Shown here one piece after another: positions 28,026 through 60,802 of a stretch of DNA of 64,000 nt (position 1 is its first letter; every line of letters begins with the position of its first letter). A program made the translations under genes and the position numbers. The DNA is from an uncultured delta proteobacterium. GTDB lineage: Bacteria > Desulfobacterota > Syntrophia > Syntrophales > UBA2185. Where the stretch lies: assembly GCA_963729715.1 (NCBI GenBank), contig CAVSPA010000004.1, forward strand, positions 64,001 to 128,000, read 5' to 3'. Under the pieces are notes generated by a model. That model did no database searches. It worked only from the letters and a program-made list of their open reading frames with translations, and had not been told where the DNA came from.

Positions 28026-28028
28026 GAT

Positions 28029-33222: not shown

Positions 33223-33258
33223 TGGGAATTGATGTAAGGGGGATGGTGCATATGAAAT

Positions 33259-35013: not shown

Positions 35014-35031
35014 AGTCTCCTGACGATCTCT

Positions 35032-37091: not shown

Positions 37092-37112
37092 CGCGCACGG
37101 AAGATTTTCATC

Positions 37113-40778: not shown

Positions 40779-40921
40779 TTACTTTTCTCTTCTTGAAATA
40801 TCAGCATGACAATACGGTATTTAATAACAGGAGACAATGCATGAAAATACGCATTCTCACTTTCACAAACAACGCTATTGTTATGATTCTTACAAACATT
40901 TTAGATTTAGAGTTATAGCGG

Positions 40922-41671: not shown

Positions 41672-41681
41672 AGTGGTAATT

Positions 41682-42959: not shown

Positions 42960-43051
42960 TTACATCGTCTGGTTATTATCTGCCATTCCAACAGTGATGC
43001 AGCTCAAGTTTAAGTCGGTTTTGATCACGCTTCATCGCCTTCGAATTTTTT

Positions 43052-43738: not shown

Positions 43739-43866
43739 AAGTCAACTCTCTTATTAATTCAATCCTCAAGTATCATTCCCGCACTCGCATCGACGACACT
43801 GCCGGTGTAGAGCAGTTAGGGCACTATATGAATAAGCACCCGTGTGGATCGCTTGCGGGCATTCCT

Positions 43867-45072
43867 TCATTGAAAATACCATCGGCACTGGGGGAAAACT
43901 GGGCCGACTTTTTCTATAGGGAGCTGTCTCTTCGTTACCATATTCAGTACGTCAAAGATCATACAATCCTTATCGCCAAAGAAATTTTCTATCCCGTCAC
44001 CGAACCAGAGTGACAATCTATATGTGCCATTCAGCAATTGTGGATGTTCGACAATCACCTTCACTACGCCCTTGTAGCTGGGATTAACTACCTGGTCTTG
44101 AGGATGGTCGATCAGATTTGAGCCACAAATTGGATTGCCGAAGTAATCGCTTATGATGAAACCAAGAACGGGTATCTTAATTTCCTTCTCAAGCTGATAT
44201 TCAAAGACGATTTCTATAATATTACCTTTCTGTTGGACTTTTGCCCTGTTCAGAGGTTCGGCTTTAAACACTATTTCGTTCAAGCTGGATTGACCAAGAT
44301 AGAGATTGATTCCTTCCACCACACTGAGTGGACCTCTTGCATTTCCTTCCGAAAGAAAGATTGCCTTATTGCACAAGGAGGCAATCGCGTTCATGTTGTG
44401 ACTAACAAATAGCACCGTTCTTCCTTCTCTTGCTACATCGCCCATTTTCCCCAAACATTTTTTTTGAAATGATGTATCTCCCACCGCCAACACCTCATCG
44501 ACGAGGAGGATTTCCGGTTCAAGGTGTGCTGCTACTGCAAACGCAAGACGCATGTACATGCCAGAAGAATAATATTTGACAGGCGTATTAATGAATCTTT
44601 CTACTTCTGCAAAAGTTACAATTTCACTAAATTTGCGACTGATTTCATTACTGCTCATGCCGAGCACTGTCCCACTTAGATAGATATTCTCTTCTCCGGT
44701 GAGTTCGGAATGGAATCCGGTGCCAACTTCCAAAAGAGAACCGATTCTACCGCGAATTCGCGCACGCCCTTCCGTCGGTTCGGTAATACGGGAAAGAATT
44801 TTAAGAAGAGTACTTTTGCCCGCGCCGTTCCTCCCTATGATGCCAATTATCTCGCCGCGTTTGACTTCAAAGTTTACACCTCTTAACGCCCAGATGAATT
44901 CCGACGGGTTTACATCGTTTGAAACGGGTGGCGAGAAAGCGTTTCTGATTTGGCGAAAGGGCGCTGCAGCCAGATCTAAAAGAGCTTCCCGGAAGGTCTT
45001 GTCGCGGTCCTCGGGAGATCCGATACGGTACAGTTTTCCGAGATTTTCAACCTGAATAACGATGTCGTTCAT
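43867..45072 (-). CDS. wzt: Polysaccharide ABC transporter ATP-binding subunit with C-terminal extension
   Basis: GRNGAGKSTLL, YSSGM, LLVDE, FVSH. Confidence 0.92.
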   Translation of the reverse strand: MNDIVIQVENLGKLYRIGSPEDRDKTFREALLDLAAAPFRQIRNAFSPPVSNDVNPSEFIWALRGVNFEVKRGEIIGIIGRNGAGKSTLLKILSRITEPTEGRARIRGRIGSLLEVGTGFHSELTGEENIYLSGTVLGMSSNEISRKFSEIVTFAEVERFINTPVKYYSSGMYMRLAFAVAAHLEPEILLVDEVLAVGDTSFQKKCLGKMGDVAREGRTVLFVSHNMNAIASLCNKAIFLSEGNARGPLSVVEGINLYLGQSSLNEIVFKAEPLNRAKVQQKGNIIEIVFEYQLEKEIKIPVLGFIISDYFGNPICGSNLIDHPQDQVVNPSYKGVVKVIVEHPQLLNGTYRLSLWFGDGIENFFGDKDCMIFDVLNMVTKRQLPIEKVGPVFPQCRWYFQ

Positions 45073-45119
45073 ATTCTTACTGTGGGCATATTACGTGTTG
45101 CATCTCGTTCCTGGAATCT

Positions 45120-45245
45120 TAGTACATCATTTCATTATTAAGGTGTCATATCGACCGAAGGGAGATGTCTTTTAGTTTTACCTTCATATTAAGATTTCTC
45201 GCTGCCCCTTCGCGATGCTCAGGGCTTCGGCTCACCGAAATGACA
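45120..45245. repeat. REP/MITE-like intergenic element (same family as 25880)
   Basis: Shared 33-nt left segment; GTCATATCGACCGAAGGGAGA...AGATTTCTC...CGAAATGACA. Confidence 0.7.
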
Positions 45246-45261
45246 ATGATAGTATTGTGGG

Positions 45262-46098
45262 TTAGATGATATCGGCGAATCGCCGTTCCATTCGTGTGAA
45301 ATAAACAATCCCCATGATAAACAACGCAATGCTCACCGCTACTGAAATAACGAGGTCGCTCCAGAGGATGGGCGTGTTGAGAAGTGAAGATCGAAAGGCT
45401 GTGATCAGCCCGGCCATGGGGTTAAGGTTAATCAGCCATCGCCAACGCTCAGGAACGATGCTTGAAGGATAAATTACCGGTGTTGCGAAGAGCCAGAACT
45501 GGACAAGAAATGGAATGACGTATCGGAAATCCCGGTAGGCAACATTCAGTGCGGAAAGAATCATTCCAATTCCAAGGGTTGCTATAATGACTCCGAGCAT
45601 CAAAAGTGGAAGTAAGAAAAGACTCCACCCTGGATATATTCCGTAATAAAACATCATCACAATAAGAATAATAAAGGCGACAAAAAAATCGAGTAATCCG
45701 GATCCGAGGGATGCTGCCGGTATAATTATTCTCGGGAAATATACTTTTGATATTAAGTTGCTGCTTGCCAACACACTATTTCCCGCATTGCTGATCCCGT
45801 TACTGAAGAACTGCCAGGGTAGAAGAGCCGTGTAAACAAATATGGGGTAGGGAATATTATCCGATGGAATCTTTGCCAGCATGCCGAAGAAGATAGTAAA
45901 TACCACCATGCTCATGAACGGCTGCAGAATTGCCCATAACCCACCTAACACAGTCTGTTTGTAACGGACCTTTATATCGCGGATTGTTAAAAAATGTAAC
46001 AACTCGCGGTATCGCCACAGTTCCTTCCATTGCAGGGAAGACCAGAATTTTCTGGGTTCTATAATTGTGATGTCGGATTGATTATTTCCCATAGTCAT
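45262..46098 (-). CDS. wzm: Polysaccharide ABC transporter permease
   Basis: RDIKVRYKQTVLG.LW..LQP; KVYFPR; TPVIYP; NPM. Confidence 0.93.
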   Translation of the reverse strand: MTMGNNQSDITIIEPRKFWSSLQWKELWRYRELLHFLTIRDIKVRYKQTVLGGLWAILQPFMSMVVFTIFFGMLAKIPSDNIPYPIFVYTALLPWQFFSNGISNAGNSVLASSNLISKVYFPRIIIPAASLGSGLLDFFVAFIILIVMMFYYGIYPGWSLFLLPLLMLGVIIATLGIGMILSALNVAYRDFRYVIPFLVQFWLFATPVIYPSSIVPERWRWLINLNPMAGLITAFRSSLLNTPILWSDLVISVAVSIALFIMGIVYFTRMERRFADII

Positions 46099-46119: not shown

Positions 46120-47526
46120 CTAACTGAGGGATTCATTTGCGACAACATTGTCTGCGGCAACCTCTATTGATGGAATCATGATAATCATGGCCGTCAAGAA
46201 CCAGAAAGGTTCCATGATACGGACGATAATGAAAGTATTAGTGCCGATGCCGTGGGTGACCATGGCAACAAATCCTGCAAGATAACCGAGCGAAAGACCG
46301 CTAAAAAGCGGGTCTGCGGTCCCCCTGTAGGTATGCAATGCATTCATATAGATGGAAAGAAGAAGAATGAAGAAAGTGAGAAATCCCAGGAGTCCTGTCT
46401 CGGCGAGCACCCGTGGATATTGCGCATCCAGAAAACGGTATCCCGTAATGCCATAGCCAAGTATCGGCTGACTGATAAAATCTTTTTCAAGAGCATCTTT
46501 CCAAGACTTAAGCCTGGCGGAAGTTGAGGTGTCAAGCCTTGTATTGCCGACGGTGATCTGTCCGGCTTCTCGCGGCTGAGTAAAAGTAAAAGATACCCTT
46601 TCTATAACACTTTTTGGCAAGATAAATGAGGATGCGAGAAAAATAATGATTAATGCGACAATAATGGGCCACTTTCTCTTACTAAAATAAAGCAGTGTCA
46701 TGACCATGGGAATAAGTGAAACCCAGGAGGCTCTGGAAAGTGTTGCGGCAAGGGAAATAAGGATTAAAAAGAAGAGGGTGCCCAAAAATATTTTTTGTTT
46801 TTTGGAGCGGCCATAGCCTAGTAAAAGACCCAGGACGATGGAGAGCATAAGAACAAGATAGCCCCCAAGCGTATTTGGTTCGCCTTCCGGGCCTTCAAAT
46901 GGTGCAGAGACGCGTCCACCGGCCGGTATTTGATAGATAGCAACTATGCAAATGACAAAGCAAACAAGGAGGATGGTAAACAGGAACCGCTCAATTTGTT
47001 TTTTCTCCTTGAGATGGTTTACGGCAATGAAGTATATGATAAAGTATTCAAAGTATTTCAAAAGAAAGAAGAATCCCGTGAGTCCTTTTACTCTTCCCAT
47101 CATATATCCAATGAGTGTTGAAATCAGGCAGACTATGAAATAGTATGTAATAGGTCCGTTTAGGGGCGTTCTGAGAAAGAGCCCTAATTCTTTCCTAATA
47201 GCTGTTCTCAGAAACCAGCTCAGTCCGATTATGACCAGGAGAAAGTCGTCCATGCGTAAGGTTAGCCCGCGTCCGCGGCCGGGCAATTCTGTCGGTTCTC
47301 CGATTATAAACTGCGGTCCGAGGAGCATGGAAACGATCAGGATATAGAGGGCGATTTCTGTATTGATAAAACTCACGATACCGATGATAACAGCGGCGAT
47401 TACCGCAAAGGCAAGGCCGGTTGACGCCTTCGCAATTAACAGCCCTCCCGCCATCGTTATTAGGAAGATCGTTATGAGGAATAATACGGTCTTTGGATCG
47501 ATAGCTGCTTGTGTGAGTCTATTCAT
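46120..47526 (-). CDS. O-antigen ligase / Wzy polymerase family protein
   Basis: Multi-TM; EPNTLGGY, TLSRASW, GYG, LAETGLLG. Confidence 0.85.
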   Translation of the reverse strand: MNRLTQAAIDPKTVLFLITIFLITMAGGLLIAKASTGLAFAVIAAVIIGIVSFINTEIALYILIVSMLLGPQFIIGEPTELPGRGRGLTLRMDDFLLVIIGLSWFLRTAIRKELGLFLRTPLNGPITYYFIVCLISTLIGYMMGRVKGLTGFFFLLKYFEYFIIYFIAVNHLKEKKQIERFLFTILLVCFVICIVAIYQIPAGGRVSAPFEGPEGEPNTLGGYLVLMLSIVLGLLLGYGRSKKQKIFLGTLFFLILISLAATLSRASWVSLIPMVMTLLYFSKRKWPIIVALIIIFLASSFILPKSVIERVSFTFTQPREAGQITVGNTRLDTSTSARLKSWKDALEKDFISQPILGYGITGYRFLDAQYPRVLAETGLLGFLTFFILLLSIYMNALHTYRGTADPLFSGLSLGYLAGFVAMVTHGIGTNTFIIVRIMEPFWFLTAMIIMIPSIEVAADNVVANESLS

Positions 47527-48303: not shown

Positions 48304-51303
48304 TTAATTCTTCATTGTTCCATCAACAGGGAATAGCCGGGGCGCGTATACATAACCAAGCGTTCTCTTCAAATCGCGCTTTTTCTCTTTAACGTTGAAT
48401 ACCGCGTACCAGTCATCATCAAGGAAGTCCGCCTTGACCCTCTGTCCCGGTTGAAGCTGACTTCTTATCCGGGAGTCGATTGAACGGTCTGCCCTGACGT
48501 TGGTCTTGTCTTTCGCATACAGGATAACGCCCCAGTCCTTGTTATCGGCCGTCTTGGGAAGCGCCGCCTGCATGGGTATCGACTCCTTGGGAGGCGCTAA
48601 TTGTAAGGGTGTTGCCGGTGGCTGGCTGCTCTCAGCTACAGGTTTCTTTTCTTCTATGGATATTGGCTTTTCTTGAGGTTTTGTTTGCGTCGCACTTGCC
48701 GGCTGCTGCGTGTTCTCTTGAGAAGTTTTCTTTTCCTCACTGACAGGTTTTGGGGATTCACCCCAGGGCAAAATATTTTTTACATCGTATTGAATAACGC
48801 GGGTCTGAAACAGGATGCCGAGAATCAGGAATAAAAGAGCAAATAAGAAAATTACGATTTTCAATCCTGAAATTTTCGCTTCAGTTCTTTCTGGCGCTGG
48901 CTTCTGTGCCTCATCATGCTGCGTCGGTTTCGTTTCAACTTCGACCGCGGGCGCAGGTACAGCCATGGGTTCAGGTACGGGCGCAGCTACCGGTGCGGGT
49001 GCAGCTACAGAGGCAGGAGCGGGGGCAGCGGTAGGAGCAGGCTCTTCCTGCTTGACAGCCACTTTGGATACAATTGATTTGAGATAATCCGTTATCGTTT
49101 GAGGCAGCGCAGCGATCTTTTCTGCGAGCGATGGCTTTCGCAGTGTCTTATCACCGTAGTAGTAATAATACTTCTTGTCACGGTAAGCAAAATCAGGGCT
49201 GATATCCGCTTTTAAACCGTTGAGGACAACACCAAAAATTTTCGCACCCACATGGTCAAGCTGTGCCTTGGCCCGCTTGAGGGCGCCTCTGGCAATTTTT
49301 CCCACCTGATATACAATGATTGCGCCGTCTGCGACGGAACTCCATATCGATGCCTCGGTAGCGGCCAATACGGGAGGTGCATCTATCAGTATAATGTCAT
49401 ATTCCGAAGAGGCCTGCTTGATAAGTTCAGGCACGAGCTTTGAGTTGACGAGCTCGGCGGGATTGGGGGCCGCCGAGCCGCCGGTGATTATGTGGAGATT
49501 GTCCATACCGGGGGTCAGCATAATCTCATCCATGCTCATCTTGCCCGTTATAAAATCTGTGATTGTCCTGACAACACTCCTCCATTCATAGTTGCCTAAA
49601 ATTACATCGGCCAGTCCGGGCACAGGTTCGATGCCAAACAGCTTAGCTATGACGGCCCTCCTGAGGTCTCCTTCAATGAGGAGCACCTTGCTGCCGCCCT
49701 GAGCCATGGTTATGGCAAGATTGACGGCTACGGTAGTCTTGCCTTCCTCGGGTGAAGAACTCGTGAAAACTACCGACTTTATGCTCTTATCGAGATTCAG
49801 AAAATTAAGGTTTGTCCTGAGGGCCCTGTAATTTTCCGCCGAGGTTGATGAAGGCAGGAAGTGCGATATGAGCCTATTCGTTTTCTTTATAGTATCGTCA
49901 TCTGGTGTTTTAGAGTATTTGTCCTGAAGAGTCGCCTTGAGTTCATCATGGTTGACCTGCGGTATAATCCCCAGGACTCTTACGCCCAGAAAGTCTTCCA
50001 CTTCTTCGATGGCCTCGAATGATGTATCGAAGGTTTCCATGATGAACGCGAAGACAATGCCCATAATCAGTCCGATAATCAATCCGATAATTGTATGGGA
50101 AGTAACCTTGGGCGGATTGACAGGTGTTGTGGGTTCAAGGGCCGGCCTTACGACCTTTACCTCTTCTATCTTTTCCGCCTCTTGAATCAATGCCTCCTGA
50201 TACTTCTTTTGCAGCAGGGAATACACTTCCCTGTTAACGCCCGCCTCCCTCTCCAGTCTGACCAGTTCCAGACCTTTTTCCGGAAGCTTCCGGAGCTGCT
50301 CGTCCGTAGCGCCGATCTGCTGCTTTAAACTCCTGATGTTTGATTCCAGATACCTTTTCTGCGAGGACAATTGCGACCGCATGCTCGTGATTATTTCATG
50401 GGACTGATTCTTGATTTCGTGAATCTGAGGGAAGGCTTCTGTATATGTAAGAAGAAGGGTGTCCCTCTCGAGCATGAGCTGAACTAATTTGTCATTGAGG
50501 TTCTTATAGATCGGCGTTGCTTCCTCAAAATAGAAAGAGCTTTTTGATGTGAGAGGTTTCTCTTCGGCTGTCGCAAGGGCTTGTTCCACCGCACTGACCT
50601 TCTGAAGTGTTGACGTGTCAAGATCGTATTGGGCCTGGAGTTTGGATGATTGGGCGAGTGAGGCCGTGGACTGCGCGTCAATGGATATCAGTTTGCTGTT
50701 CTCTCTGTAATCCCGCACCTGATCTTCTGATTTGGCGACTTTCTCCCTCACGATGTTGAGCTGATTTTCTATAAATGTCTTGGCCTCGAATGTCCTCTTG
50801 TTGATATCGACCAGATGCTCTTCTTTATAGACCTGAGCGATCGTGTTGGCGAAACGTTGCGCAAACTTGGGGTCTTCAGATGTCACGTTTATGGTGATAA
50901 TATCGGTATTGCCTTCTTGTTCCGTTGTGACGTTAGCCTTAAGATCCAATATAACCCTGAGATATTCGCTATTGCTGCGTATCTGTTCGGAAGTAAGATT
51001 GGCCGGTATCAAATTGAGCTTTTTGGCAACTGACTCCAAGATAATGTAGCTCCTTATCACGGAAGCCTGCGTCTCCAGGTAATTGGTGGAAGACCACGGA
51101 AAAGTTTGTGAGTAGAGGCCGGTGAGTGAGCCGGTCTTTTCAATCTTGATGCTGGCGCTTGTTTTATATATGGGGAGAGGCTGTCCCAATAGGGCCCAGA
51201 CAAGACTGAAAAATGCCATCGACGCCGCTGTAAAGAGGACAATGAACTTCCGCTTTCTGACGGTGCGCCAGTAATCTCTCAGATTAAGATCATATTGGGC
51301 CAT
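48304..51303 (-). CDS. wzc: Wzc-type polysaccharide co-polymerase / tyrosine autokinase with long C-terminal extension
   Basis: Probable start MAQYDLNL after GGAGA; ENYRALRTN, SSSPEEGKTT, IEGDLRR, IDAPP, Tyr cluster YRDKKYYYYY. Confidence 0.9.
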   Translation of the reverse strand: MAQYDLNLRDYWRTVRKRKFIVLFTAASMAFFSLVWALLGQPLPIYKTSASIKIEKTGSLTGLYSQTFPWSSTNYLETQASVIRSYIILESVAKKLNLIPANLTSEQIRSNSEYLRVILDLKANVTTEQEGNTDIITINVTSEDPKFAQRFANTIAQVYKEEHLVDINKRTFEAKTFIENQLNIVREKVAKSEDQVRDYRENSKLISIDAQSTASLAQSSKLQAQYDLDTSTLQKVSAVEQALATAEEKPLTSKSSFYFEEATPIYKNLNDKLVQLMLERDTLLLTYTEAFPQIHEIKNQSHEIITSMRSQLSSQKRYLESNIRSLKQQIGATDEQLRKLPEKGLELVRLEREAGVNREVYSLLQKKYQEALIQEAEKIEEVKVVRPALEPTTPVNPPKVTSHTIIGLIIGLIMGIVFAFIMETFDTSFEAIEEVEDFLGVRVLGIIPQVNHDELKATLQDKYSKTPDDDTIKKTNRLISHFLPSSTSAENYRALRTNLNFLNLDKSIKSVVFTSSSPEEGKTTVAVNLAITMAQGGSKVLLIEGDLRRAVIAKLFGIEPVPGLADVILGNYEWRSVVRTITDFITGKMSMDEIMLTPGMDNLHIITGGSAAPNPAELVNSKLVPELIKQASSEYDIILIDAPPVLAATEASIWSSVADGAIIVYQVGKIARGALKRAKAQLDHVGAKIFGVVLNGLKADISPDFAYRDKKYYYYYGDKTLRKPSLAEKIAALPQTITDYLKSIVSKVAVKQEEPAPTAAPAPASVAAPAPVAAPVPEPMAVPAPAVEVETKPTQHDEAQKPAPERTEAKISGLKIVIFLFALLFLILGILFQTRVIQYDVKNILPWGESPKPVSEEKKTSQENTQQPASATQTKPQEKPISIEEKKPVAESSQPPATPLQLAPPKESIPMQAALPKTADNKDWGVILYAKDKTNVRADRSIDSRIRSQLQPGQRVKADFLDDDWYAVFNVKEKKRDLKRTLGYVYAPRLFPVDGTMKN

Positions 51304-51317
51304 TGCGCGTGATTCTC

Positions 51318-52508
51318 CTAAAACTGCAGAGCGGAAGGGTTTCTTAACCACTGATCCCTGAGGGGGGCAGGATATTGATACAAGTACTGCAAAAGAGGTG
51401 TCGTGTTGATGATGAATTCATTGATATCGCCTATAACCCTTCTCGGCACGTAAACAAGATCACCGTCTTTAAGCTTTATATTCTGGGACAGGTCCCCTTG
51501 CTTCAGAATTTGATCCAGGTTGGCGGATAGGATAATCGGCTTCCCTCCGCGCTCCTTGTATTCCCTTATTATCTTTATATCTGAATTTATTGCTATCAGG
51601 GTGTAACTCCCGGCATCAGCCATAGCTGCCAGGAGGTCAGGCGCATCCTTCAGCCTGTATATACCCGGCCTGTTGACCTCGCCGAAGACATACACCCTTT
51701 CACCGTAAAAGGGCAGTTCCGGAACGGTGACTATGTCGCCATCGTCTATGATTACATTTTGGGAAACGTCCCCTTTGAACATGGCATTATAAAGATTGAC
51801 CACGTACCTCTTACCCTTTCGGAGTATTTCCACATTTCTGAGATCAGCATTTCCCGGGCTAACGCCGGTGATACCAATGTCCTTGCCTGTTATCGGGCCG
51901 CCGGCAGACACGATGAGATCAAGAATCGTGGTCTTTCCAGTAAGAGGGTACTTTCCGGGACCGGATGTCCCCGTCGAAAGGACGTTGATCTGGCCGAAGA
52001 GCAGGGCTGTCTTACTTTTGTAATCTTTTACGATAACTTCAATTCGAGGATTCCTGATGTATTGTTTTAGTTGATTCGTCAGTATTTCTCTGACCTCGTT
52101 GACGGTGTGACCTGCAACGGGGATGTCATCACCGAACAAATAGGAGATCTTGCCCTCCTGTCTGACCACGACCGTGTAAGTATTCTGTTTGAAGCCTTCT
52201 TCGGTGCGGGCCGTTGTAATTGTGTATGGGATCCAGTAGTTGATCGTGAGGATATCACCCGGCCCTATAAGATATTCAGGCACGCCATGCCTTAGTGTAA
52301 AGACGCTGTTTTCCGTGACCTGGCTCATCTTCACGATTTCTTCCATTTCCTTCTGTTCAGCTAGGCGCTGCGCAGGCGTCACAACCCCGGATGTTTCAGA
52401 AAAAGTCTTGACAGGTATGCCGCGGGCCTCAAATGTGCAGGCAGATAAAAGCAGAGTTGCGAAGCACGAAATATATGCGAGGAGTTTGATTTTACCTATG
52501 TATAACAT
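51318..52508 (-). CDS. wza: Polysaccharide export lipoprotein (Wza/OPX) with SLBB domains
   Basis: Lipobox LSAC; YLIGPGDIL; VFGEVNRPG; LKDGDLVYVP. Confidence 0.9.
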   Translation of the reverse strand: MLYIGKIKLLAYISCFATLLLSACTFEARGIPVKTFSETSGVVTPAQRLAEQKEMEEIVKMSQVTENSVFTLRHGVPEYLIGPGDILTINYWIPYTITTARTEEGFKQNTYTVVVRQEGKISYLFGDDIPVAGHTVNEVREILTNQLKQYIRNPRIEVIVKDYKSKTALLFGQINVLSTGTSGPGKYPLTGKTTILDLIVSAGGPITGKDIGITGVSPGNADLRNVEILRKGKRYVVNLYNAMFKGDVSQNVIIDDGDIVTVPELPFYGERVYVFGEVNRPGIYRLKDAPDLLAAMADAGSYTLIAINSDIKIIREYKERGGKPIILSANLDQILKQGDLSQNIKLKDGDLVYVPRRVIGDINEFIINTTPLLQYLYQYPAPLRDQWLRNPSALQF

Positions 52509-52687: not shown

Positions 52688-54130
52688 TCAAGGCCTTTTT
52701 AATTTTTTTTCAGGTGACGGTAAAAAGCTGAAAATATGGGAAACGATCTCCCGTACACGGGCTGTATAGTATGATTTCAGGGTTACACCGTCCCTGACAC
52801 AAAGTCTTTGAAGAAGTATTTGGCGAGGCGGGAACAAAGTCCTGAATAAGAATTTGATCTTATCGGAGAGTGTTCTATTCATGGCCAGGTAAATAAAATA
52901 GCTGCTGCCCCGGATGCGGCGGTTGGTAGTCTGGAGTCTCAGGAAGAATCTTTCACCGAGAGATAAATCCGGCGGCGTCAGTTTCCTCGGGCTTTCTTCA
53001 GGTATAAACGCTCTTGCATAGGCCTTAACGATGGAGAGGCTGAGATAGACCAATCGGTCCAGATTAAAACGGCGGCTTTCTTCGACAAGTAAATCCCAAT
53101 CAATATTTTTTTCATAGGCTTTAAGGGCGTAGGATATATCCGTTATGAGTATGAGGCGATCGAAGGAGTGGCCTATCCTGAGGGCGTGTTCGCAGAGATA
53201 GATGATAAGGTGTTCGGGGCATAACATATATACGTCGGCATCTGCCACCCTCGCGGGAACCGCCTTTTCCCATATGCGCCCGATATCGACATGTTTGGCA
53301 AACATCGTTGCTGGCACTGAACTGTTTACTATGTGCCAGTGAACATGAAGATTTAAGGGGGAGCCATTTTCTTTTCGGTATTCGAGGCTGGCAAGATAGC
53401 CTTCCGGATTGTTTATGGCCCTCGCAACGGAACTGTCTCTTGCGATATATCCCTGAGAGGACAAGAGCTCATCGACATCATAGAGGTCAGTTTTCTTGAC
53501 CAGAATATCGATGTCTGACATTCCCCTCATCGCGATGGCGGGATAGATGTGTTCCGCAAGGGCTATGCCTTTAAGAACAATGCAGAGGATCCCGGATTCC
53601 TTAAGAAGGGTGAGGATACTTTTCAACTCACCGATGATGGAAAGGTTTCTTCTTAGATTGTTGTAATACTGTTCGGATAGCGCAGCTCTGACTGCCGGGG
53701 GCACGAGATGTTCCGCTTTGTTATTTTTTAAATTGTGAAATATTGTTTCGACAACGCCCTCCTGCCTCATCTTCACAACAATATAGTCCCAGTCGTACTC
53801 CGTGCTATCCTTTGCATACAAAGAGAGAGATTGATTTTTGGAATCCAACTTCTGTAACCTTTGCACAACTCCTCTATTTGTCATTCCGGGCTTGACTCGG
53901 AAATTGGAGCATACTTCTTGATAATACTGGATTCCCGCTGGAGCCGGTCCTCGAATGTCCTTATCGGGGACGGGAATGACAAAATTGCTGGTCTTAAGCA
54001 GTTCTGAAAAGGTCTCCTTCTGTGAGTCCTTATTAGGTAAGTCAAAAAGGAGACTTAGGATTAATTTGTCGCAATCTTGGCAGTTGATGGCAAAGCTCCG
54101 CTCTCTAAAGTCACGGCTTCTCGTAAACAT
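52688..54130 (-). CDS. Nucleotidyltransferase family protein (NTP_transf_5-like) containing an in-frame MITE
   Basis: LKGIALAEHIYP, RGMSDIDILV, LHVHW, YLCEH motifs. Confidence 0.85.
   Translation of the reverse strand: MFTRSRDFRERSFAINCQDCDKLILSLLFDLPNKDSQKETFSELLKTSNFVIPVPDKDIRGPAPAGIQYYQEVCSNFRVKPGMTNRGVVQRLQKLDSKNQSLSLYAKDSTEYDWDYIVVKMRQEGVVETIFHNLKNNKAEHLVPPAVRAALSEQYYNNLRRNLSIIGELKSILTLLKESGILCIVLKGIALAEHIYPAIAMRGMSDIDILVKKTDLYDVDELLSSQGYIARDSSVARAINNPEGYLASLEYRKENGSPLNLHVHWHIVNSSVPATMFAKHVDIGRIWEKAVPARVADADVYMLCPEHLIIYLCEHALRIGHSFDRLILITDISYALKAYEKNIDWDLLVEESRRFNLDRLVYLSLSIVKAYARAFIPEESPRKLTPPDLSLGERFFLRLQTTNRRIRGSSYFIYLAMNRTLSDKIKFLFRTLFPPRQILLQRLCVRDGVTLKSYYTARVREIVSHIFSFLPSPEKKLKRP
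53856..54016. mobile_element. 161-bp MITE-like element inserted in frame in the nucleotidyltransferase gene
   Basis: Imperfect TIRs AACCTTTGCACAACT / AGTTCTGAAAAGGTCTC; 7-bp direct repeat CTTCTGT at 53849-53855 and 54017-54023; internal GTCATTCC..GGAATGAC repeat. Confidence 0.75.
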
Positions 54131-54263
54131 AGATACTCCCTCTCACGCATATGAGAAGGAGTACCTGTAAAAAGTAGTGTCTATCAAAATAGGTTTCAAT
54201 TTAAAATACAATATATTATAATAGATTAGATGCAAGAAGTAAATAGGTTCTGAGGATGGTGGG

Positions 54264-54572
54264 ATGGAAGAGTTTTTGAAGGATATCGAACTTTTGTCAA
54301 GGAATACGGATTGTATTTTCAGGGAAGAGGAAGACGGGGCCTTTCTGTTCGATCCGGAAAGCGGGAATCTTAAATTTATCAATAGCATGGGCGTTAATAT
54401 CTATCAGCTCTGCGACGGTAAAATGACTGTGGGAGACATCACATCATTGGTAAGCGAAAATTATAAAGACATTTCGAGCAAGAAGATCGAGGACGATATA
54501 AAGGTTTTTTTGCAAGAGCTTGTAAAAATGGAGTTTTTAAAAAGAGAAGAAACCGGTCATGACGGGAAATAA
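54264..54572 (+). CDS. PqqD-family RiPP recognition element (ScmD-like)
   Basis: REEEDGAFLFDPESG...IN.MG..IYQLCDG.MTV.DI...DIKVFLQEL. Confidence 0.9.
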   Translation: MEEFLKDIELLSRNTDCIFREEEDGAFLFDPESGNLKFINSMGVNIYQLCDGKMTVGDITSLVSENYKDISSKKIEDDIKVFLQELVKMEFLKREETGHDGK

Positions 54573-55641
54573 TGCAGCGTATTCGTTAAACTCCATTTAT
54601 CTTTATCTTACGGACAGATGTAATCTGAGGTGCAGGCACTGCTGGATTGAACCTCTATATTATGAAGGCCGCAAAGACGACAGCACTGAATTTGACCTGA
54701 AATTTCTCAAAAAGGCGATTGAAGATGCGAAAGAGATTGGCCTTAACCGTGTTAAGCTGACAGGCGGCGAGCCTTTTTTGAGAAGAGACATACTTGATAT
54801 CATCGCGTATCTTCATGCTCAAAACATTACAGTGGATATAGAGACAAACGGCACCCTCATAGACAAGGAGATTTGCGCAGTTCTAAAAGCTAATGGCGTT
54901 AATCAGGTATCCGTCAGCCTTGACAGCATGACGGCAGAGCAGCATGAAACATTCCGCGGGGTCAAAGGTTGTTACCATGATGCCTTGAAAGGGCTTTCAC
55001 TGCTCACAGAAAGTGGCATAAACACTCAGCTCATAATGACCCTCTATAAGGAAAATATATCGGAGATTGAAAGGCTGGTTGATCTTTCTTCCCGGATGGG
55101 TGTCGGTTCTGTTAAGATAAACCCTGTCATGCCCACGGGGCGAGGCAAGAAATTTTTTGAAAAAGAAGAAAATGTTGAGTTCGGCGATCTAATAAAGATT
55201 GACAGATGGATTGAAGAAGAATTAGTGTCAAAATACAAAATTGATATACACTTTGATATCCCCATAGGTCTTAAGTCGCTTAAATGCATAAGAACGAGAC
55301 AATTGTTCGAGTGCAATATTGTAAATATAATCGGCATACTCTCCGACGGCACAATTTCCCTGTGCGGCATCGGCCAGACGGAGACTGCTCTTAATATGGG
55401 CAACATTGCGGTAGACGATATACGTGAAGTGTGGGCAAGTAATCCCATCCTGCAGAAATTGAGAAAGGACATACCGCGCAATTTAGAGGGCATATGCGGC
55501 CGCTGCATATTCAAGTTCAGATGCCGGGGGGCGTGCAGGGCCTGTGCATACGGCTTAACAGGAAGTCTTAATAGTCCCTTCTTTGTCTGCCGTGAGGCAT
55601 ATGAAAAGGGACTGTTTCTGGAATCCAGGATGATCAATTAA
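54559..55641 (+). CDS. Radical SAM/SPASM peptide maturase (SynChlorMet ScmF-like)
   Basis: YLTDRCNLRCRHCWIEP, TGGEP, ETNG; SPASM CGRCIFKFRCRGAC (Cx2Cx5Cx3C). Confidence 0.9.
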   Translation: MTGNNAAYSLNSIYLYLTDRCNLRCRHCWIEPLYYEGRKDDSTEFDLKFLKKAIEDAKEIGLNRVKLTGGEPFLRRDILDIIAYLHAQNITVDIETNGTLIDKEICAVLKANGVNQVSVSLDSMTAEQHETFRGVKGCYHDALKGLSLLTESGINTQLIMTLYKENISEIERLVDLSSRMGVGSVKINPVMPTGRGKKFFEKEENVEFGDLIKIDRWIEEELVSKYKIDIHFDIPIGLKSLKCIRTRQLFECNIVNIIGILSDGTISLCGIGQTETALNMGNIAVDDIREVWASNPILQKLRKDIPRNLEGICGRCIFKFRCRGACRACAYGLTGSLNSPFFVCREAYEKGLFLESRMIN

Positions 55642-55660
55642 GGATTGAGTGAGGTAACAA

Positions 55661-56698
55661 ATGACTCGCAGCTATGACTTGATTAAAGATAATAATAAGG
55701 GAGAGGGAGACGGGCCTCTTCGCCTGAGTGACATTGAAAACCTTAAGTCCCAGGAAGGCAAATCATACGAGACTCCGGAAGAGCGTTCAGCGCAGGATGA
55801 AAAAGAGGTTGATAATGCCGAGAGACTCTATGCGGGCTTCCAGAAATACATGCGCGATGTCAGGGAGGAGGTTAAGACCAATCAACCCATTGAGCTTGAG
55901 GCGGCATTCTCGCTGATTGAGCAGCTCACGAAATCAAGAAGTATGATGGAAAGAGTTTATCAGTTAACCAATACCTTTTACCATGGTAAGGACTACTATA
56001 TCTCTCATCCCGTAAATACAATGATATATGCCGTAAAGGTCGGGCTGCGGATGGGATATTCCCGTGACAAACTCAAAGAACTCGCTATGGCAGCACTTCT
56101 TCACGATGTAGGAATGTTTATGATTCCTGAAAATATCATAACCAAGGAAGGGGCATTGACCGAATCTGAATTGGCTCTGATAAAGAGACATCCTGAGCTC
56201 GGGAAAAATCTCCTGTTCAAGTTTAAGGATCAGTTACCCTGGCTTGCCCGCGCCGTTCATGAACATCAGGAAAGAGAAAATGGCAAGGGATATCCGAGGG
56301 GAATTAAAGGAGATGACATTGCGGAGTACGCGAAGATTATAGGCATATGTGATTCGTATGAGGCGATGACGCACAACCGTCCCCACAAGAAGGCTATCAT
56401 GCAATTTACCTCAGTGAGGGAATTGATAGAAACAAAGGACCTTCTGTTTCCCACAAAGATACTTAGAGCATTTCTTGAGGAGTTATCCCTGTATCCGATA
56501 GGAAGTTGCGTAAAATTGAATAACAATGCAATTGGAAGGGTCATTGACACCAATAAAGACCAGCCCATGAAACCGATAATCAAACTCCTTTTTGACGGCC
56601 ACGGGAATGCAGTGACTGACGAAAGGATCATAGACTTGAAAGAGAATACTGTATTGAATATTCTCGGCGGCGTGTCAGATGACGAATTGCCAGGCTAA
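55661..56698 (+). CDS. HD-GYP domain protein (cyclic-dinucleotide phosphodiesterase-like)
   Basis: LLHDVG, KRHP..G, HQERENGKGYP, DSYEAM..RP. Confidence 0.9.
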   Translation: MTRSYDLIKDNNKGEGDGPLRLSDIENLKSQEGKSYETPEERSAQDEKEVDNAERLYAGFQKYMRDVREEVKTNQPIELEAAFSLIEQLTKSRSMMERVYQLTNTFYHGKDYYISHPVNTMIYAVKVGLRMGYSRDKLKELAMAALLHDVGMFMIPENIITKEGALTESELALIKRHPELGKNLLFKFKDQLPWLARAVHEHQERENGKGYPRGIKGDDIAEYAKIIGICDSYEAMTHNRPHKKAIMQFTSVRELIETKDLLFPTKILRAFLEELSLYPIGSCVKLNNNAIGRVIDTNKDQPMKPIIKLLFDGHGNAVTDERIIDLKENTVLNILGGVSDDELPG

Positions 56699-57598
56699 AT
56701 GGAAGAACTGATTCTCTCCATAGCGGACCTTGCCATTGCCGTTCGTGCGGAGAAACACATAAAAGTTTTATTAGAACCTTTAACTAAACTCTTCAGCGGA
56801 TTTCTAAATGATGCCGGTAAACCAGCCGCGTTCCTGAATTTAACTTACGATCGTCTCCGTACATATCCGAACTTTAAAGACATGACTGTCAATGTGCTTG
56901 CGGGAAACTGCGGGGAAAGCAACGAATTGATTAATCAGGTGGGGAAAGTTTACCCGATATCAAGAGATTCTATAGTCGTCGGGTATTTAAATGGATGCCT
57001 CGCGTATAATCCGTCATCCAGTGAGGCCTGTCTGCTTCTCTTCAGGTCGCATGATCAGAACAATTTCACGGCAACTCTTCATAAGATGCTGTTCATCTTT
57101 ATTTCTTTCGTCCTGGGTGAAAGAAACAGATTCATGGTGCACGGTGCAGGAATAGGGGAGAAACAGGGTGGGGGAGGCTTTCTCTTCCTCGGCGATTCAG
57201 GTGCGGGAAAAACAACCGTTGCGGGTTTTGCCGGTGTGGATGCAGTGCTTTCGGATGACGCTCCCGTTATCGGCAAAGAAGACGGCGTTTACAACATATA
57301 TTCATCACCCTTCAGCCAAGTAAATTTGTTTGACGAAAGATCAAGCGATTACTTCCGGAAGAAGGTTCAATTAAGGAAGCTTTTGTTCTTAAATAAGGCA
57401 GATGAGATTGCGGTAACGGCGCGGCAACGACATTCCGCCCTGACGGAAATATTAACATCGCACGTGCATTCGTTTGATCTGATGGACCGGGACTTGAGAA
57501 TAGGTGCTTTTAACTTTTGCCATGACCTATGTTACAGCATACCTGCGTATGACCTCTATTTTCAGGAGAATAATAAATTCTGGGATGCTTTGAACTAA
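56699..57598 (+). CDS. HPr-kinase-related P-loop protein (ScmC-like)
   Basis: VHGAGI...LFLGDSGAGKTT...LSDD.P...SPF. Confidence 0.8.
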   Translation: MEELILSIADLAIAVRAEKHIKVLLEPLTKLFSGFLNDAGKPAAFLNLTYDRLRTYPNFKDMTVNVLAGNCGESNELINQVGKVYPISRDSIVVGYLNGCLAYNPSSSEACLLLFRSHDQNNFTATLHKMLFIFISFVLGERNRFMVHGAGIGEKQGGGGFLFLGDSGAGKTTVAGFAGVDAVLSDDAPVIGKEDGVYNIYSSPFSQVNLFDERSSDYFRKKVQLRKLLFLNKADEIAVTARQRHSALTEILTSHVHSFDLMDRDLRIGAFNFCHDLCYSIPAYDLYFQENNKFWDALN

Positions 57599-57625
57599 AA
57601 AGCTGTGATTCTGCCATGCCGTCGC

Positions 57626-57994
57626 TTAGCCGGCGCCTCCCGCCTGACATCCTCCCGCAGCGGCGCTGCCAGCCGTACACGTGCCTCCGGCGACACTGCC
57701 AGAGTTGCAACCACTGTTTCCGGCGGCGCTGCCGGATTGACATTGACCACCGGCAGCAGTACTGCCGGCATTACATTTGCTTGACGTAGGAGCGCTGCCT
57801 GTATTGCAATTGCTTGATGCGACACTGCCGGCTTGACATTGCCCGCCGGAGGCAGTGGCTCCCGAGTTGCACTGCTGTTGAGGAGATCCTCCTGCCTGGC
57901 ATTGGCTTGGCCCTTGAGCGTGAGCGACCCCGCCGCCAAGATCAAGAATTTGAGGAGGTTCATAAGGGAGCTTGAATTTGGATTTCACGTGCAT
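57626..57994 (-). CDS. RiPP precursor peptide with YxxP leader and nine C-x-x-G repeats
   Basis: GGAGGG RBS; leader PYEPPQILDLG; core of 10-11-aa Gly/Ser/Ala/Gln-rich repeats each starting C-x-x-G; directly after a rSAM/SPASM gene. Confidence 0.85.
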   Translation of the reverse strand: MHVKSKFKLPYEPPQILDLGGGVAHAQGPSQCQAGGSPQQQCNSGATASGGQCQAGSVASSNCNTGSAPTSSKCNAGSTAAGGQCQSGSAAGNSGCNSGSVAGGTCTAGSAAAGGCQAGGAG

Positions 57995-59114
57995 ATCCCT
58001 CCTGTTTCTTTTGTGACTTCATTACATCTAAGCTGTATGGGTATCCATTGCCTTTGTAGATCCTGTAGCAGGACATGGGATCAACCGTAAAAACAGAGCC
58101 AGAGAGCTCATAAGACACAGCAGGACATCCGCCGATACAGAGTGATTTGTATCCGCAGCCGCTGCATTCCTCAATATCGTCCAGGGAAACGGATGCCCTT
58201 CTTCTCATTTTGGAAAAAATGGGCGACGAAGCCCATATTTCCTGAAAATCCGTTTCCCCGATGTGGCCGGCCTTGAAATCCCACAACCTGTCACATGGAA
58301 CAACCCAGCCGTCGGGCCTGACGGTACACTTCTGGATTCCCCCTCCGCAGCCAAACAGCCCGTTCGTACATCCCGGATTGTCCCGGTCCCCTATCTTCTG
58401 AAGCTTCTCGAAGCCTTTAAAAAAGTTTCCCATGTCGAGGATCGTCCCGATTACAAAATTACCGTACGTATTTCTCAAGCGCTCTAATTTGTGCGTTAAC
58501 GCCCTTCTCTGAGAATTGGAAAGAGTGAGGTTGGGAAGATGACATACCGCGTTGCCGAGCGGCAGTAGTTCATTAAATTTCACGGCCGTCAAACCGAGGC
58601 TCTTCCCGAGAATAATAATATCTTCTATGTCCTGATAATTGTTCTTCGTGACCGTGGTGTAAGTGGAGACGTGTCTGTTATGCTTTAAAAGATTTTCGAT
58701 GCCGCGAATCGTTCGATCAAAACTGCCATTTCCCCTTTGCTTGTCATGCACGGCGGGTGATGACCCGTCGAGACTGACGACGACGCTGAACAGTTTCTTT
58801 AGCTCGGAAATCCGCCGCGATGCTTGTTCGTCGATAAGGGTGGCGTTTGTATTCAGGCCGTAATGGAAGTGGTGTTTTTCTATTTCATACAAAATGGAAA
58901 AGACATCTTCCCTCATGAAGGGCTCGCCGCCGCTGATCCAGAGTGTAAAAACCTTCAACTCGGCAAGTCTCCTGATAAACTTTATCCATTCGTCTGTCGT
59001 CAGGTCGCTCGTTGCATTGCGCGTCGGATAGACGTTGCAATGCTTGCATGCCAGATTACACTTATTGGTAATGGCGATGAAAACATCTAATGGAGCCGAA
59101 AAACAGTTCTTCAT
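57960..59114 (-). CDS. Radical SAM/SPASM peptide maturase (SynChlorMet ScmE-like)
   Basis: ITNKCNLACKHC, SGGEP, VSLDG; CGGG..C.VRPDGWVVPC; CSGCGYKSLCIGGC. Confidence 0.9.
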   Translation of the reverse strand: MKNCFSAPLDVFIAITNKCNLACKHCNVYPTRNATSDLTTDEWIKFIRRLAELKVFTLWISGGEPFMREDVFSILYEIEKHHFHYGLNTNATLIDEQASRRISELKKLFSVVVSLDGSSPAVHDKQRGNGSFDRTIRGIENLLKHNRHVSTYTTVTKNNYQDIEDIIILGKSLGLTAVKFNELLPLGNAVCHLPNLTLSNSQRRALTHKLERLRNTYGNFVIGTILDMGNFFKGFEKLQKIGDRDNPGCTNGLFGCGGGIQKCTVRPDGWVVPCDRLWDFKAGHIGETDFQEIWASSPIFSKMRRRASVSLDDIEECSGCGYKSLCIGGCPAVSYELSGSVFTVDPMSCYRIYKGNGYPYSLDVMKSQKKQEGYAREIQIQAPL

Positions 59115-59518
59115 GACGAAATGATCAGCCCCTTTCGCTTAAAGGCCATGAGGGTGAGTACGATGTCCCTTTTCGCGGCATCCTGCCCCACATCAAAACG
59201 ACCGGTAATTTCCTCTACCATATTATCGACACCGTTGGCACCGTTGCACAGGTTCCAGATATCAGCAGCAACAGCGTTTAACTTCAGCGTATCTGAGTTT
59301 TTCCTCGTATCCGTAAGGATCGTGTAGCTATCTTCTTTTCTCAGCGAGACGTCAGGATGTCTGGCAGGACTGGCGCTCAGGATTTCCTTCACTTCCATTG
59401 AATTCCAGGTGTATCGCAGATAGTCGACCATGCCAAATGACCGCACGGAGCCAGTAGCCGGCAGGAGAATACCTGCGCCAAATAATACGGACATAAAATT
59501 TCTTCTCGATGTATCCAC
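59111..59518 (-). CDS. PqqD-family RRE protein with N-terminal twin-arginine-like signal
   Basis: MDTSRRNFMSVLFGAGILL; C-terminal LNAVAADIWNLCNG...MVEEITGRFDV....AKRD. Confidence 0.8.
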   Translation of the reverse strand: MDTSRRNFMSVLFGAGILLPATGSVRSFGMVDYLRYTWNSMEVKEILSASPARHPDVSLRKEDSYTILTDTRKNSDTLKLNAVAADIWNLCNGANGVDNMVEEITGRFDVGQDAAKRDIVLTLMAFKRKGLIISS

Positions 59519-59564: not shown

Positions 59565-60359
59565 TTATAATGAATCCTTTACCACCTTTTTTACCAAGTC
59601 CGCACTAATGGTCTTTTGTTTTGTGCTGGAGGCAATCAAAAGTGCCAGATCACAGACATTGTTTATCTTCCTCGGCACGCCTTGGGAATACAGGTATATT
59701 TCTTCTATAGAGTCGGGAGGAAATATCCCGTTGGTCAGTCCCGCTCTCTCCATTCTGTAAACTATGTATTTTGCCGTCTCGTCGGCATTGAGTGGATTCA
59801 GATGGAATCTTATGGCGATCCTCTGATCGAGTTGTTTAAATTGCCTTATCAGGTCCTTCAGCTCCGGTTGTCCGATGAGAACGAATGTCATCAGGAACTT
59901 ATCGTTCAACTGAAAGTTCAGGAGCAAGCGAATCTCTTCGAAGGTATCGGTGTGTATGAGCTGTGCCTCATCGATGATGAGCAGAGTGGTCCTGTTTTTC
60001 CTGACATTTTCGAGCAGCCGCGTATTTAATATGGCGAGAAGCTCCGTCTTTGAATTAGTCCTGACATTCAGGCCAATCTGATAGAGCACCTCCTTCAGGA
60101 AGTCCAGCGGCTCGAGCGACGGGTTTGTTATCAATCCGATCTCAAAATCCTTTTCGGGAAGCTGCTGGATGAAAACCCTGCTGAGGAGAGTCTTTCCGCT
60201 TCCTATTTCGCCCGTAAGCAGGGCTGCCCCTTTTCTCCTCTTCACGGCATAGACTAGCCTGGCGAGGGCCTCGACGTGCTCATGTGAGTAGTACATGAAC
60301 TCCGGATCAGGTACATTTTCAAACGGGAATTTCTTGAAGCCCCAGTATTCTAAATACAT
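59565..60359 (-). CDS. ExeA/GspA-like AAA ATPase (EPS-locus type)
   Basis: MYLEYWGFKKFPF..PDP; GEIGSGKT; IIDEAQ; LIGQPEL; QGVPRKIN. Confidence 0.9.
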   Translation of the reverse strand: MYLEYWGFKKFPFENVPDPEFMYYSHEHVEALARLVYAVKRRKGAALLTGEIGSGKTLLSRVFIQQLPEKDFEIGLITNPSLEPLDFLKEVLYQIGLNVRTNSKTELLAILNTRLLENVRKNRTTLLIIDEAQLIHTDTFEEIRLLLNFQLNDKFLMTFVLIGQPELKDLIRQFKQLDQRIAIRFHLNPLNADETAKYIVYRMERAGLTNGIFPPDSIEEIYLYSQGVPRKINNVCDLALLIASSTKQKTISADLVKKVVKDSL

Positions 60360-60802
60360 TTCATCAACCCATCAATTGCCATATAGATCTCTGAAAAACA
60401 GAGCCTGTACTGAAATATTGAAAGTTTGTAGGGATCCTTAATGTCCCCGTATTCTTCATTATAATCCGGAGAAAATGATTTGAGACGATGAATCTTAGCC
60501 TCCGCTTCCGGGTACTTCTCGACGATTATTTTCTTGTGGATACCCTCCATGACGATGATCATATCTGCCTGGGAGACCATGTCTTCCGTCAATAGCTTTG
60601 AATGGTGACCGGCGCCATCGAGACCGTGCTCATCCAGTATTTCAACGGCTTTCGGATCGGCAGGCATGCCATTCATGTCGGTGACGGCGGCAGAGTAAAC
60701 CTCGATACCGGGTTTTTTGTCCTTTTTCAGCCTTTCTATGAGAATCCTTTCCGCCATGAAGCTTCTGACTATATTGGCAGTGCAGACAAATAAAATTTTC
60801 AT
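60350..60802 (-). CDS. wzb: Low-molecular-weight protein-tyrosine phosphatase (Wzb-like)
   Basis: FVCTANIVRS (CX5R), DIKDPY. Confidence 0.85.
   Translation of the reverse strand: MKILFVCTANIVRSFMAERILIERLKKDKKPGIEVYSAAVTDMNGMPADPKAVEILDEHGLDGAGHHSKLLTEDMVSQADMIIVMEGIHKKIIVEKYPEAEAKIHRLKSFSPDYNEEYGDIKDPYKLSIFQYRLCFSEIYMAIDGLMKCI

Follow-up and report, generated by a model that had tools for sequence, protein, structure and literature searches.

A SynChlorMet-like cassette with two radical SAM proteins, a repetitive CxxG precursor and a putative twin-arginine RRE in a polysaccharide locus of an uncultured Syntrophales bacterium

The closest described relatives of the system reported here are the SynChlorMet cassettes (TIGR04248 to TIGR04252), which combine two radical S-adenosylmethionine (rSAM)/SPASM proteins with a PqqD protein, the kinase-like ScmC, and a Cys-rich precursor. 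The TIGRFAM paper that founded these models is reportedly that of Haft and Basu in 2011. SynChlorMet cassettes are widespread in anaerobes, and in the literature searched (most subscription journals were outside its scope) neither a product nor an enzyme chemistry or function was found assigned to them, in keeping with an initial annotation of the present DNA that regarded the product as uncharacterized. Here we describe a cassette of this kind at positions 52688 to 59518 of a 64,000-nucleotide stretch, hereafter the window, from an uncultured delta proteobacterium (Desulfobacterota; Syntrophia; Syntrophales; UBA2185; GenBank assembly GCA_963729715.1, contig CAVSPA010000004.1, positions 64001 to 128000 of the forward strand). 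The cassette, for a ribosomally synthesized peptide with post-translational modification (RiPP), comprises a precursor gene, two rSAM/SPASM genes, two RiPP recognition element (RRE) genes, and genes for a kinase, a nucleotidyltransferase (NTase), and an HD-GYP-like protein. Judged from the sequences, we see an even chance that the whole is a SynChlorMet-type RiPP system in which Cys and Gly would be joined into a chain of thioethers, an RRE with a twin-arginine translocation (Tat) signal would aid export, and the product would work with a surface-polysaccharide system.

Other described systems share parts of this set. StsB, which is related to MftC and uses a stand-alone RRE, forms Cys-Gly sactionines according to the part of PMC10288494 available, and streptosactin is described in the accessible part of PMC9389541 as having four-residue, un-nested sactionine rings. 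Both the streptosactin/GggB and StsB/BlaB systems thus resemble the present one in their short Cys units and likely Gly acceptor. They differ in using one rSAM enzyme for two or three rings, nested for StsB, whereas the two rSAM enzymes and up to 10 units considered here are known from genes. Thuricin CD and ruminococcin C likewise have two rSAM enzymes per peptide family, but they are Firmicute antimicrobials with hairpin topology, for which the available portions of the sources report no kinase, NTase, or Tat-signal RRE. In pseudomycoidin biosynthesis, as far as the accessible part of PMC6993621 goes, PsmK phosphorylates the peptide and PsmN adds a hexose onto the phosphate, giving a phospho-hexose. 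The pseudomycoidin and paeninodin systems have in common with ours RREs, a YxxP leader, an HPrK-type kinase with DD, and a protein of the NTP_transf_5 type that bears DxD; here there is no C-terminal Ser, and the likeness to PsmK/PsmN is one of motif, not of direct sequence comparison. Finally, XrtA/PEP-CTERM loci share the ExeA-like ATPase, Wza, Wzc, and an O-ligase-like gene with the surroundings of the cassette, the PEP-CTERM-model matches being weak and below cut-off.

All eight cassette genes are real, and the open reading frames (ORFs), strands, and layout first annotated were recovered in full from the ORF list of the window, as were the overlaps between RRE and rSAM genes (14 nt for RRE1/ScmF-like and 4 nt for RRE2/ScmE-like; coordinates in Table 1). 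The precursor starts 35 nt within the ScmE-like gene. Promoter matches were at chance level (10 versus 12.3). Pfam matches were obtained for all cassette proteins except the precursor and kinase (NTP_transf_5, two PqqD, two Radical_SAM plus SPASM, and HD). The resemblance to SynChlorMet noted at the outset was borne out by hidden Markov model searches, in which the ScmA, ScmC, ScmD, ScmE, and ScmF models were the best NCBIfam matches of five cassette proteins. Every score lay below its cut-off, from ScmF (347 of 400 bits) to ScmA (13.4 of 35), so that the cassette is SynChlorMet-like rather than a strict member; this is a point against the overall reading. A bona fide ScmE (562 bits in genome G044, 553 bits in G030) adjoins a related precursor and a Tat-signal RRE of this cassette's lineage, and over-cut-off SynChlorMet cassettes in G052 likewise have a second PqqD. 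In contrast with SynChlorMet, the cassette here has a split convergent layout, a Tat signal on RRE2, a longer core, and a position inside a wza/wzc locus; unlike many other members of the family, it has neither an S26 peptidase nor an ATP-binding cassette (ABC) exporter. The TIGR04252 precursor profile found no match in the genome itself and matched only two of 401 genomes of the phylum, below cut-off, and a precursor 55% identical to the present one scores 29 to 30 bits against it (cut-off 35). Overall, the cassette is a variant of the catalogued but uncharacterized SynChlorMet family. Novelty of the family as such does not hold, the Scm family and the precursor model TIGR04252 being already on record. 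Moreover, two family precursors, one identical to the peptide of locus L058, are listed as predicted thioether (sacti/ranthipeptide) peptides under "Other Uncharacterized" in the supplement of a 2023 compendium (PMC10288494), in the accessible text of which Scm is not mentioned.

The comparative evidence comes from at least 160 homologous loci with ScmE alignments (a sample, among the matches listed) and from genome regions. The 93 full-length ScmE-like sequences were reduced to 81 at 95% identity and, after removal of 11 long-branch or outside rows, to 69 plus that of the window. A locus was considered full if the whole cassette and 1.5 kb on each side were visible, as for 26 of the 69 (27 including the window). 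Genome co-occurrence was counted in 61 genomes, kin among which are not independent. The carriers include Desulfobacterota, Omnitrophota, Margulisbacteria, and Fermentibacterota.

The precursor consists of a 26-aa leader and a 96-aa core, which holds nine CxxG units and includes 17 Ser and 6 Thr; its nine Cys, spaced by 10 to 11 residues, all fall within CxxG. An AGGAGG ribosome-binding site precedes the start. Codon changes are 14 synonymous and 4 nonsynonymous relative to the L028 orthologue and 36 and 29, respectively, relative to that of L010. This mostly synonymous divergence and the synteny in same-genus genomes identify the precursor as a real gene: it is syntenic in four of the five such genomes that have the ScmE-like gene, the contig of the fifth stopping 21 nt past ScmE. 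The close homologues are labeled Syntrophales. The peptide accompanies the rSAM pair in 25 of the 26 fully visible dereplicated loci, which bears out the initial designation of the CxxG ORF as the precursor; rSAM pairs routinely devoid of such a peptide, the pattern that would speak against it, were looked for and not found. A second 122-codon ORF (57595 to 57963, minus strand), which overlaps the precursor in another frame and has no ribosome-binding site or Cys pattern, was treated as a shadow frame. An orphan CxxG precursor was also seen in G008 (L196:2871-3122), with no cassette gene in the 9 kb examined; ScmE, ScmF, and wza were not found in that genome. The ESM Atlas returned only unnamed clusters, below 0.9.

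Leader residues Y11, E12, and P14 are invariant in 31 precursors, YxxP being a motif of the RRE-binding type. In the core, Gly occupies position +3 of 93% of 321 Cys in 58 dereplicated precursors against a Gly background of 22%, a figure that is partly selected because the search filter demanded CxxG at only 50% of the Cys; in 13 precursors from close relatives, the proportion is 102 of 103. The 58 precursors have 2 to 10 Cys each, mostly spaced by 9 to 12 residues, with Ala or Pro at Cys+6 in 74%. Certain homologous peptides terminate exactly at the Gly of the last unit, which indicates that nothing past +3 is required, the minimal unit being CxxG. Across the cores, no positions other than Cys and Gly(+3) are fixed, pointing to one four-residue Cys-S to Gly-C-alpha ring per unit. 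Alternating donor Cys and a conserved acceptor in short un-nested units, as in type 2 sactipeptides, are what the alignment contains. Our best guess for the product is a chain of Cys-to-Gly(+3) thioether rings, and the locus offers a complete, compact set of genes with a clear prediction attached to it (a loss of 2 Da per ring, for up to nine rings).

The two rSAM proteins are 26% identical, making distinct roles plausible. The ScmF-like protein keeps seven SPASM Cys at 98 to 100% in 47 sequences and is missing the second ligand of auxiliary cluster I (AuxI). The same Cys pattern, with AuxI left open, is displayed by CteB in the part of PMC6231123 consulted, and an open AuxI site may be presumed for the ScmF-like protein too. 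The latter is the more likely candidate for the thioether step. The ScmE-like copy of the window has eight SPASM Cys.

The kinase gave weak profile matches (PEPCK_ATP, E value 8e-6; ScmC as in Table 1). A profile search of the Protein Data Bank found PEPCK and HPrK, and its structural model (predicted local distance difference test [pLDDT], 91.6) has its best fold matches in PEPCK and then HPrK. His148, GKT, and Asp-Asp/Glu (DD in this copy) are kept in all 35 homologues. With the catalytic motifs intact in both proteins, the analogy drawn initially between the kinase-NTase pair and that of pseudomycoidin is a reasonable one. Neither a lasso cyclase nor a B2 protease was detected among the cassette genes with NCBIfam or Pfam; the AsnB encoded at 21904 to 23847 has a glutaminase domain and sits in the glycosyltransferase cluster. 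Near its N terminus, the NTase carries a 56-aa in-frame insertion (53852 to 54019) that five orthologues do not have. It overlaps a 55-nt sequence (53927 to 53981) with an 84% identical intergenic copy at 52538 to 52592; by appearance, a small repeat element was inserted here and left the frame intact.

Across lineages, RRE1 is the conserved RRE of the cassette, and it is probably the partner of the rSAM enzymes. It has no BLASTP similarity to RRE2, which begins with a putative Tat signal whose two Arg are invariant in all 17 aligned homologues. By our own approximation of the TATFIND rule, the signal is recognized in RRE2 and in 15 of 19 homologues, compared with 31 of the 3,307 ORFs of the genome (0.9%). 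TatC and signal peptidase I (LepB) are encoded in the genome. As first reported, no peptidase or peptide exporter is visible in the cassette; the S26 profile built from homologous cassettes, representing the soluble cassette-type enzyme, had no match anywhere in the genome. In the 27 full loci, S26 peptidases occur in none of the 8 with a Tat-signal RRE versus 13 of the 19 others (14 with a fused copy in L044), and ABC exporters in none versus 7. The absence of both from all Tat-RRE loci suggests that perhaps the peptide leaves the cell piggy-back on the RRE. The Tat-signal RRE and the precursor occur together in 11 of the 61 genomes, with one and two discordant cases. The leader ends in A-x-A in 7 of 11 precursors of the Tat lineages, and in A-x-G in 9 of 21 from S26 loci. 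Signal peptidases follow a (-3,-1) rule, which A-x-A and A-x-G both fit, and the A-x-A at leader residues 24 to 26 may represent a cleavage site of the signal peptidase type. A predicted complex of RRE2 with the leader scored 0.47 against 0.02 for the best control, with 89% contact agreement between runs and a partner pLDDT of 56. Only RRE2 was folded with the leader, and scores of 0.60 or less were obtained for 18 of 157 solved pairs as well as for both of the mismatches with a pass; since RRE-leader complexes have already been solved, the pass may reflect likeness, and the model lends weak support. Within this family, S26 usually lies by the precursor or kinase, and it adjoins an RRE mainly in different cassette types; a constant pairing of the second RRE with S26, in the manner of lasso B1/B2, was thus rejected for the family.

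The cassette lies between the ExeA-like ATPase/low-molecular-weight phosphatase genes and a wza-wzc-ligase-wzm-wzt series, and some 45 kb of polysaccharide genes are headed by it. The initial annotation spotted the cassette correctly and missed this locus. A wza of this type is present in 15 of 16 genomes with the cassette (ScmE or ScmF) versus 4 of 45 without (19 wza-positive genomes among the 61); the single cassette genome without it is a fragmented assembly whose contig stops inside the cassette. Cassette and wza vary in step within genera and families (G049 versus G028, G040 versus G059, and G052 versus G033). Owing to the nonindependence of kin, a Fisher P value exaggerates this association. 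The four wza-positive genomes without Scm all have unrelated RRE, kinase, and rSAM cassettes, in G009, G011, and G018 in the same slot, the contig of G016 being too short to show the position; overall, unrelated cassettes of at least four types occupy the slot. A count of any cassette against wza (19/19) is biased, other cassettes having been sought only in wza- or NTase-positive genomes, and is not relied on. Of the 26 full loci, 17 have genes for polysaccharide export no farther than 10 kb away, versus none of 38 control rSAM loci, the controls being mostly from distant phyla and scored with proteins of this genome, which tempers the comparison. The HD-GYP-like protein, in which HD and GYP are present and HHE is replaced by HQE, was initially counted as a RiPP component. 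It occupies the same place in exopolysaccharide (EPS) loci whether these have unrelated cassettes or none and, on this gene-order evidence, belongs to the EPS locus, not to the peptide chemistry. The association with polysaccharide export suggests that the cassette serves the cell envelope and not antibiosis, with a possible bearing on aggregation in syntrophic communities. Nothing was found in the literature searched on a combination of PqqD, EPS, kinase, and NTase.

Based on the genes, motifs, and co-occurrence patterns, a pathway can be proposed. From what is known of its family, RRE1 would very likely bind the YxxP leader and hand the core to both rSAM/SPASM enzymes. Each CxxG would then be closed by one of the two, the ScmF-like protein being the likelier candidate, to form at most nine un-nested Cys-S to Gly-C-alpha rings, while the ScmE-like protein adds a second radical change, a scheme we favor by a little. 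The kinase might next phosphorylate Ser/Thr and the NTase add a sugar or nucleotide cap onto the phosphate, in the manner of PsmK and PsmN, which we put forward tentatively. RRE2 is likely to be exported or membrane-anchored by Tat. Whether it also carries the leader-bound peptide out, for the host signal peptidase to cut at A-x-A in replacement of the soluble S26 and the ABC exporter, is conceivable at somewhat short of even chances. Finally, the product could work with the wza/wzc system as an envelope component or signal, some functional link of this sort being as plausible to us as its absence. Export and maturation of a RiPP by way of a Tat-signal RRE would be new; the literature searched yielded nothing on RRE, twin-arginine, and radical SAM together.

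Several observations weigh against the chemistry proposed. After Scm, the best NCBIfam families of the rSAM proteins are WgkB, AhbD, MftC, and GeoRSP, not sactisynthases; the StsB model is not the best family match (122 to 130 bits), and the StsB rings form, in the part of PMC10288494 seen, a nested hairpin and not an i to i+3 series. The ScmE ligand positions C263 and C330 are conserved at only 71% and 68%, rendering the division of labor between the two enzymes soft. As to the tailoring step, no Ser or Thr is invariant in the precursors (position +4 is S in 36% and G in 24%), the C-terminal residue is Gly rather than Ser and the ends differ among homologues, and the kinase is missing from 5 of the 27 full loci. 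These family matches, and the decarboxylations and C-C links performed by the nearest families (MftC, AhbD/NirJ, WgkB, and PqqE), would suit a product other than a Cys-Gly thioether, with CxxG as a metal-binding site, as a heterocycle, or within a core excised as a small cofactor. We regard this as unlikely, given the few aromatic residues in the core, the restriction of conservation to Cys and Gly(+3), and the scoring of family precursors as sacti/ranthipeptides in the portion of the PMC10288494 supplement available. That the 122-aa ORF is instead a small structural repeat protein, a beta-solenoid, and no RiPP substrate at all would fit its regular 10- to 11-residue spacing and small residues; it is highly improbable in view of the RRE-type leader, the tight linkage to RRE and rSAM genes, the freely varying repeat number, and an AlphaFold model with no confident fold (pLDDT, 40).

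The export and polysaccharide parts of the reading have counterevidence of their own. Pfam TAT_signal has no match to this RRE2, 4 of the 19 homologues fail the Tat rule, the distant Tat-signal RREs of L026, L029, and L039 have no first two beta strands, L109 has a Tat-signal RRE with neither precursor nor kinase nearby, and A-x-A is absent from 4 of the 11 Tat-lineage leaders. Furthermore, the three Tat lineages are unresolved in our tree, a quick one only, and the mutual exclusion of Tat and S26/ABC may hence reflect a single event. Each RRE could instead serve its own rSAM enzyme in the cytoplasm, as the initial annotation implied, with the twin-arginine stretch vestigial or a membrane tether and the leader either retained or removed by a protease encoded elsewhere. 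The 4-nt overlap of RRE2 with the start of the ScmE-like gene, the degenerate Tat signal of some homologues, and the presence of two RREs (non-Tat and fused forms included) in 17 of the 27 full loci are compatible with this arrangement. It seems nonetheless improbable, as the two Arg are invariant and in the other 10 full loci both rSAM enzymes run with one visible RRE. Moreover, RRE2 follows the precursor, not ScmE, staying beside it where ScmE is canonical or has moved away (G044, G030, and G050), which argues against one RRE per rSAM enzyme. The cassette might also be a mere passenger of the EPS locus, the slot being a hotspot of recombination at which RiPP cassettes share cyclic di-GMP control, the peptide a stand-alone antimicrobial, metal-binding, or signaling molecule, and the NTase a servant of the polysaccharide. 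The diversity of unrelated cassettes in the slot and the variation of the core from 2 to 10 Cys are consistent with this, as are the 9 of 26 full loci with no polysaccharide gene within 10 kb, which also count against a functional link, and the NTase gene found by wza, apart from the cassette, in G034 and G052. We still consider it rather unlikely, if less so than the arrangement with one RRE per enzyme: cassette and wza co-occur even far apart or on separate long contigs (G030, G050, and G052), some RRE cassette is present in all 15 NTase-positive genomes, and the NTase keeps to the precursor in G050 and to the cassette in G030. With wza in two genomes and with peptide genes in two others, the NTase may bridge the cassette and the EPS locus; its assignment as a purely EPS gene was softened after the G030 and G050 cases.

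Extending the envelope role suggested above, the peptide may be conjectured, with considerable doubt, to carry or anchor the surface polysaccharide: stapled, phosphorylated, sugar-primed, taken out on the Tat-exported RRE, cut, and then linked to the wza/wzc system or elongated by it, instead of exosortase/PEP-CTERM proteins. If true, this would make a RiPP an envelope building block and would explain why unrelated RRE-kinase-NTase cassettes fill the same slot; no paper describing piggy-back export on an RRE was found in the literature searched. Exosortase (PF09721) was not found in the bacterium's own genome (100% complete) and is present in 16 of the 61 genomes. Replacement of exosortase by the cassette was examined as such and is statistically unsupported (2/16 versus 14/45; P = 0.20). 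A lone PEP-CTERM motif occurs in a 42-aa open frame of the genome (G000:C18:16321-16389), though no exosortase was found there.

TABLE 1 Features of the cassette and flanking polysaccharide locus (window coordinates)
Feature	Position	Strand	Evidence
NTP_transf_5 nucleotidyltransferase (PsmN-like)	52688..54130	-	PF14907, 184 bits; DxD intact
RRE1, ScmD-like PqqD domain	54264..54572	+	PF05402; best NCBIfam TIGR04248, 49.8 bits (cut-off 100)
ScmF-like radical SAM/SPASM	54559..55641	+	TIGR04251, 347 bits (cut-off 400)
HD-GYP-like protein	55661..56698	+	PF13487
ScmC-like HPrK/PEPCK-fold P-loop kinase, 299 aa	56699..57598	+	TIGR04249, 23.7 bits (cut-off 125)
ScmA-like precursor peptide, 122 aa	57626..57994	-	ScmA, 13.4 bits (cut-off 35)
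Precursor leader with YxxP	57917..57994	-	A-x-A at residues 24-26
ScmE-like radical SAM/SPASM	57960..59114	-	TIGR04250, 241 bits (cut-off 400)
RRE2, PqqD domain	59111..59518	-	PF05402 at residues 73-132; N-terminal twin-arginine signal
RRE2 twin-arginine signal, S-R-R-x-F-M then 19-residue uncharged stretch	59438..59518	-	
ExeA-like ATPase, upstream border of slot	59565..60359	-	TIGR03015, 244.7 bits (cut-off 324.5)
Low-molecular-weight tyrosine phosphatase, Wzb-like	60350..60802	-	PF01451
Wza-like polysaccharide export protein, downstream border of slot	51318..52508	-	PF02563
Wzc-like tyrosine autokinase/chain-length protein	48304..51351	-	TIGR01007, above cut-off
O-antigen-ligase-like (Wzy_C) membrane protein, candidate glycan-transfer enzyme	46120..47526	-	PF04932
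Polysaccharide biosynthesis cluster: Wzm/Wzt, GT2/GT4, methyltransferases, epimerases, AsnB, carbamoyltransferase, WecA-like	10961..46098	-	

The survey also brought to light a number of related and alternative cassettes. In G050 (L184 and L199), a complete cassette is spread over four contigs, with RRE1-ScmE-ScmF, Tat-signal RRE-precursor-NTase, the kinase (C58), and wza (C46). A kinase-less subclade (L106, L108, L122, and L059) has short precursors directly by wzm/wzt, two of them in tandem in L106 and L122. In G009, from the same genus as the genome under study, the slot between the ATPase and HD-GYP genes holds an unrelated set of ABC exporter, kinase, rSAM, RRE, and S26 (L205:3600-10400). 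L206 and L207 belong to the same group of observations, in which the related cassettes of G014 and G016 include short precursor candidates with Cys. Elsewhere, the same slot contains an RRE, two rSAM proteins with no SPASM matches, a kinase, S26, and NTase (L190:7647-13035 and L191:2467-8044). The precursor candidate of the latter two is Cys-free and rich in Thr, Val, and Ala, with a YxxP leader, and no family model matches it; these cassettes also encode a twin-arginine protein of 163 aa whose MraZ-like match is weak. Fusions of rSAM and HPrK (about 650 to 700 aa) characterize a further cassette type (L128, L170, L138, L140, L161, L164, L169, and L156), in which S26 usually comes directly after an RRE and a number of members have a W-x-x-P-x-L leader peptide with several Cys; L128 and L170 adjoin wza and HD-GYP genes.

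Within the window, the polysaccharide cluster contains a third radical SAM/SPASM gene (35032 to 36027), which has no RRE, lies among glycosyltransferase genes, and probably encodes a sugar-modifying enzyme. An ISL3 transposase gene (29671 to 30804, plus strand) is found in the same cluster by a short methyltransferase fragment (28995 to 29477). Just past the cluster, at 1896 to 8590, are type IV pilin-like genes and a gene for a tetratricopeptide repeat membrane protein, the products of which are a possible alternative glycan acceptor.

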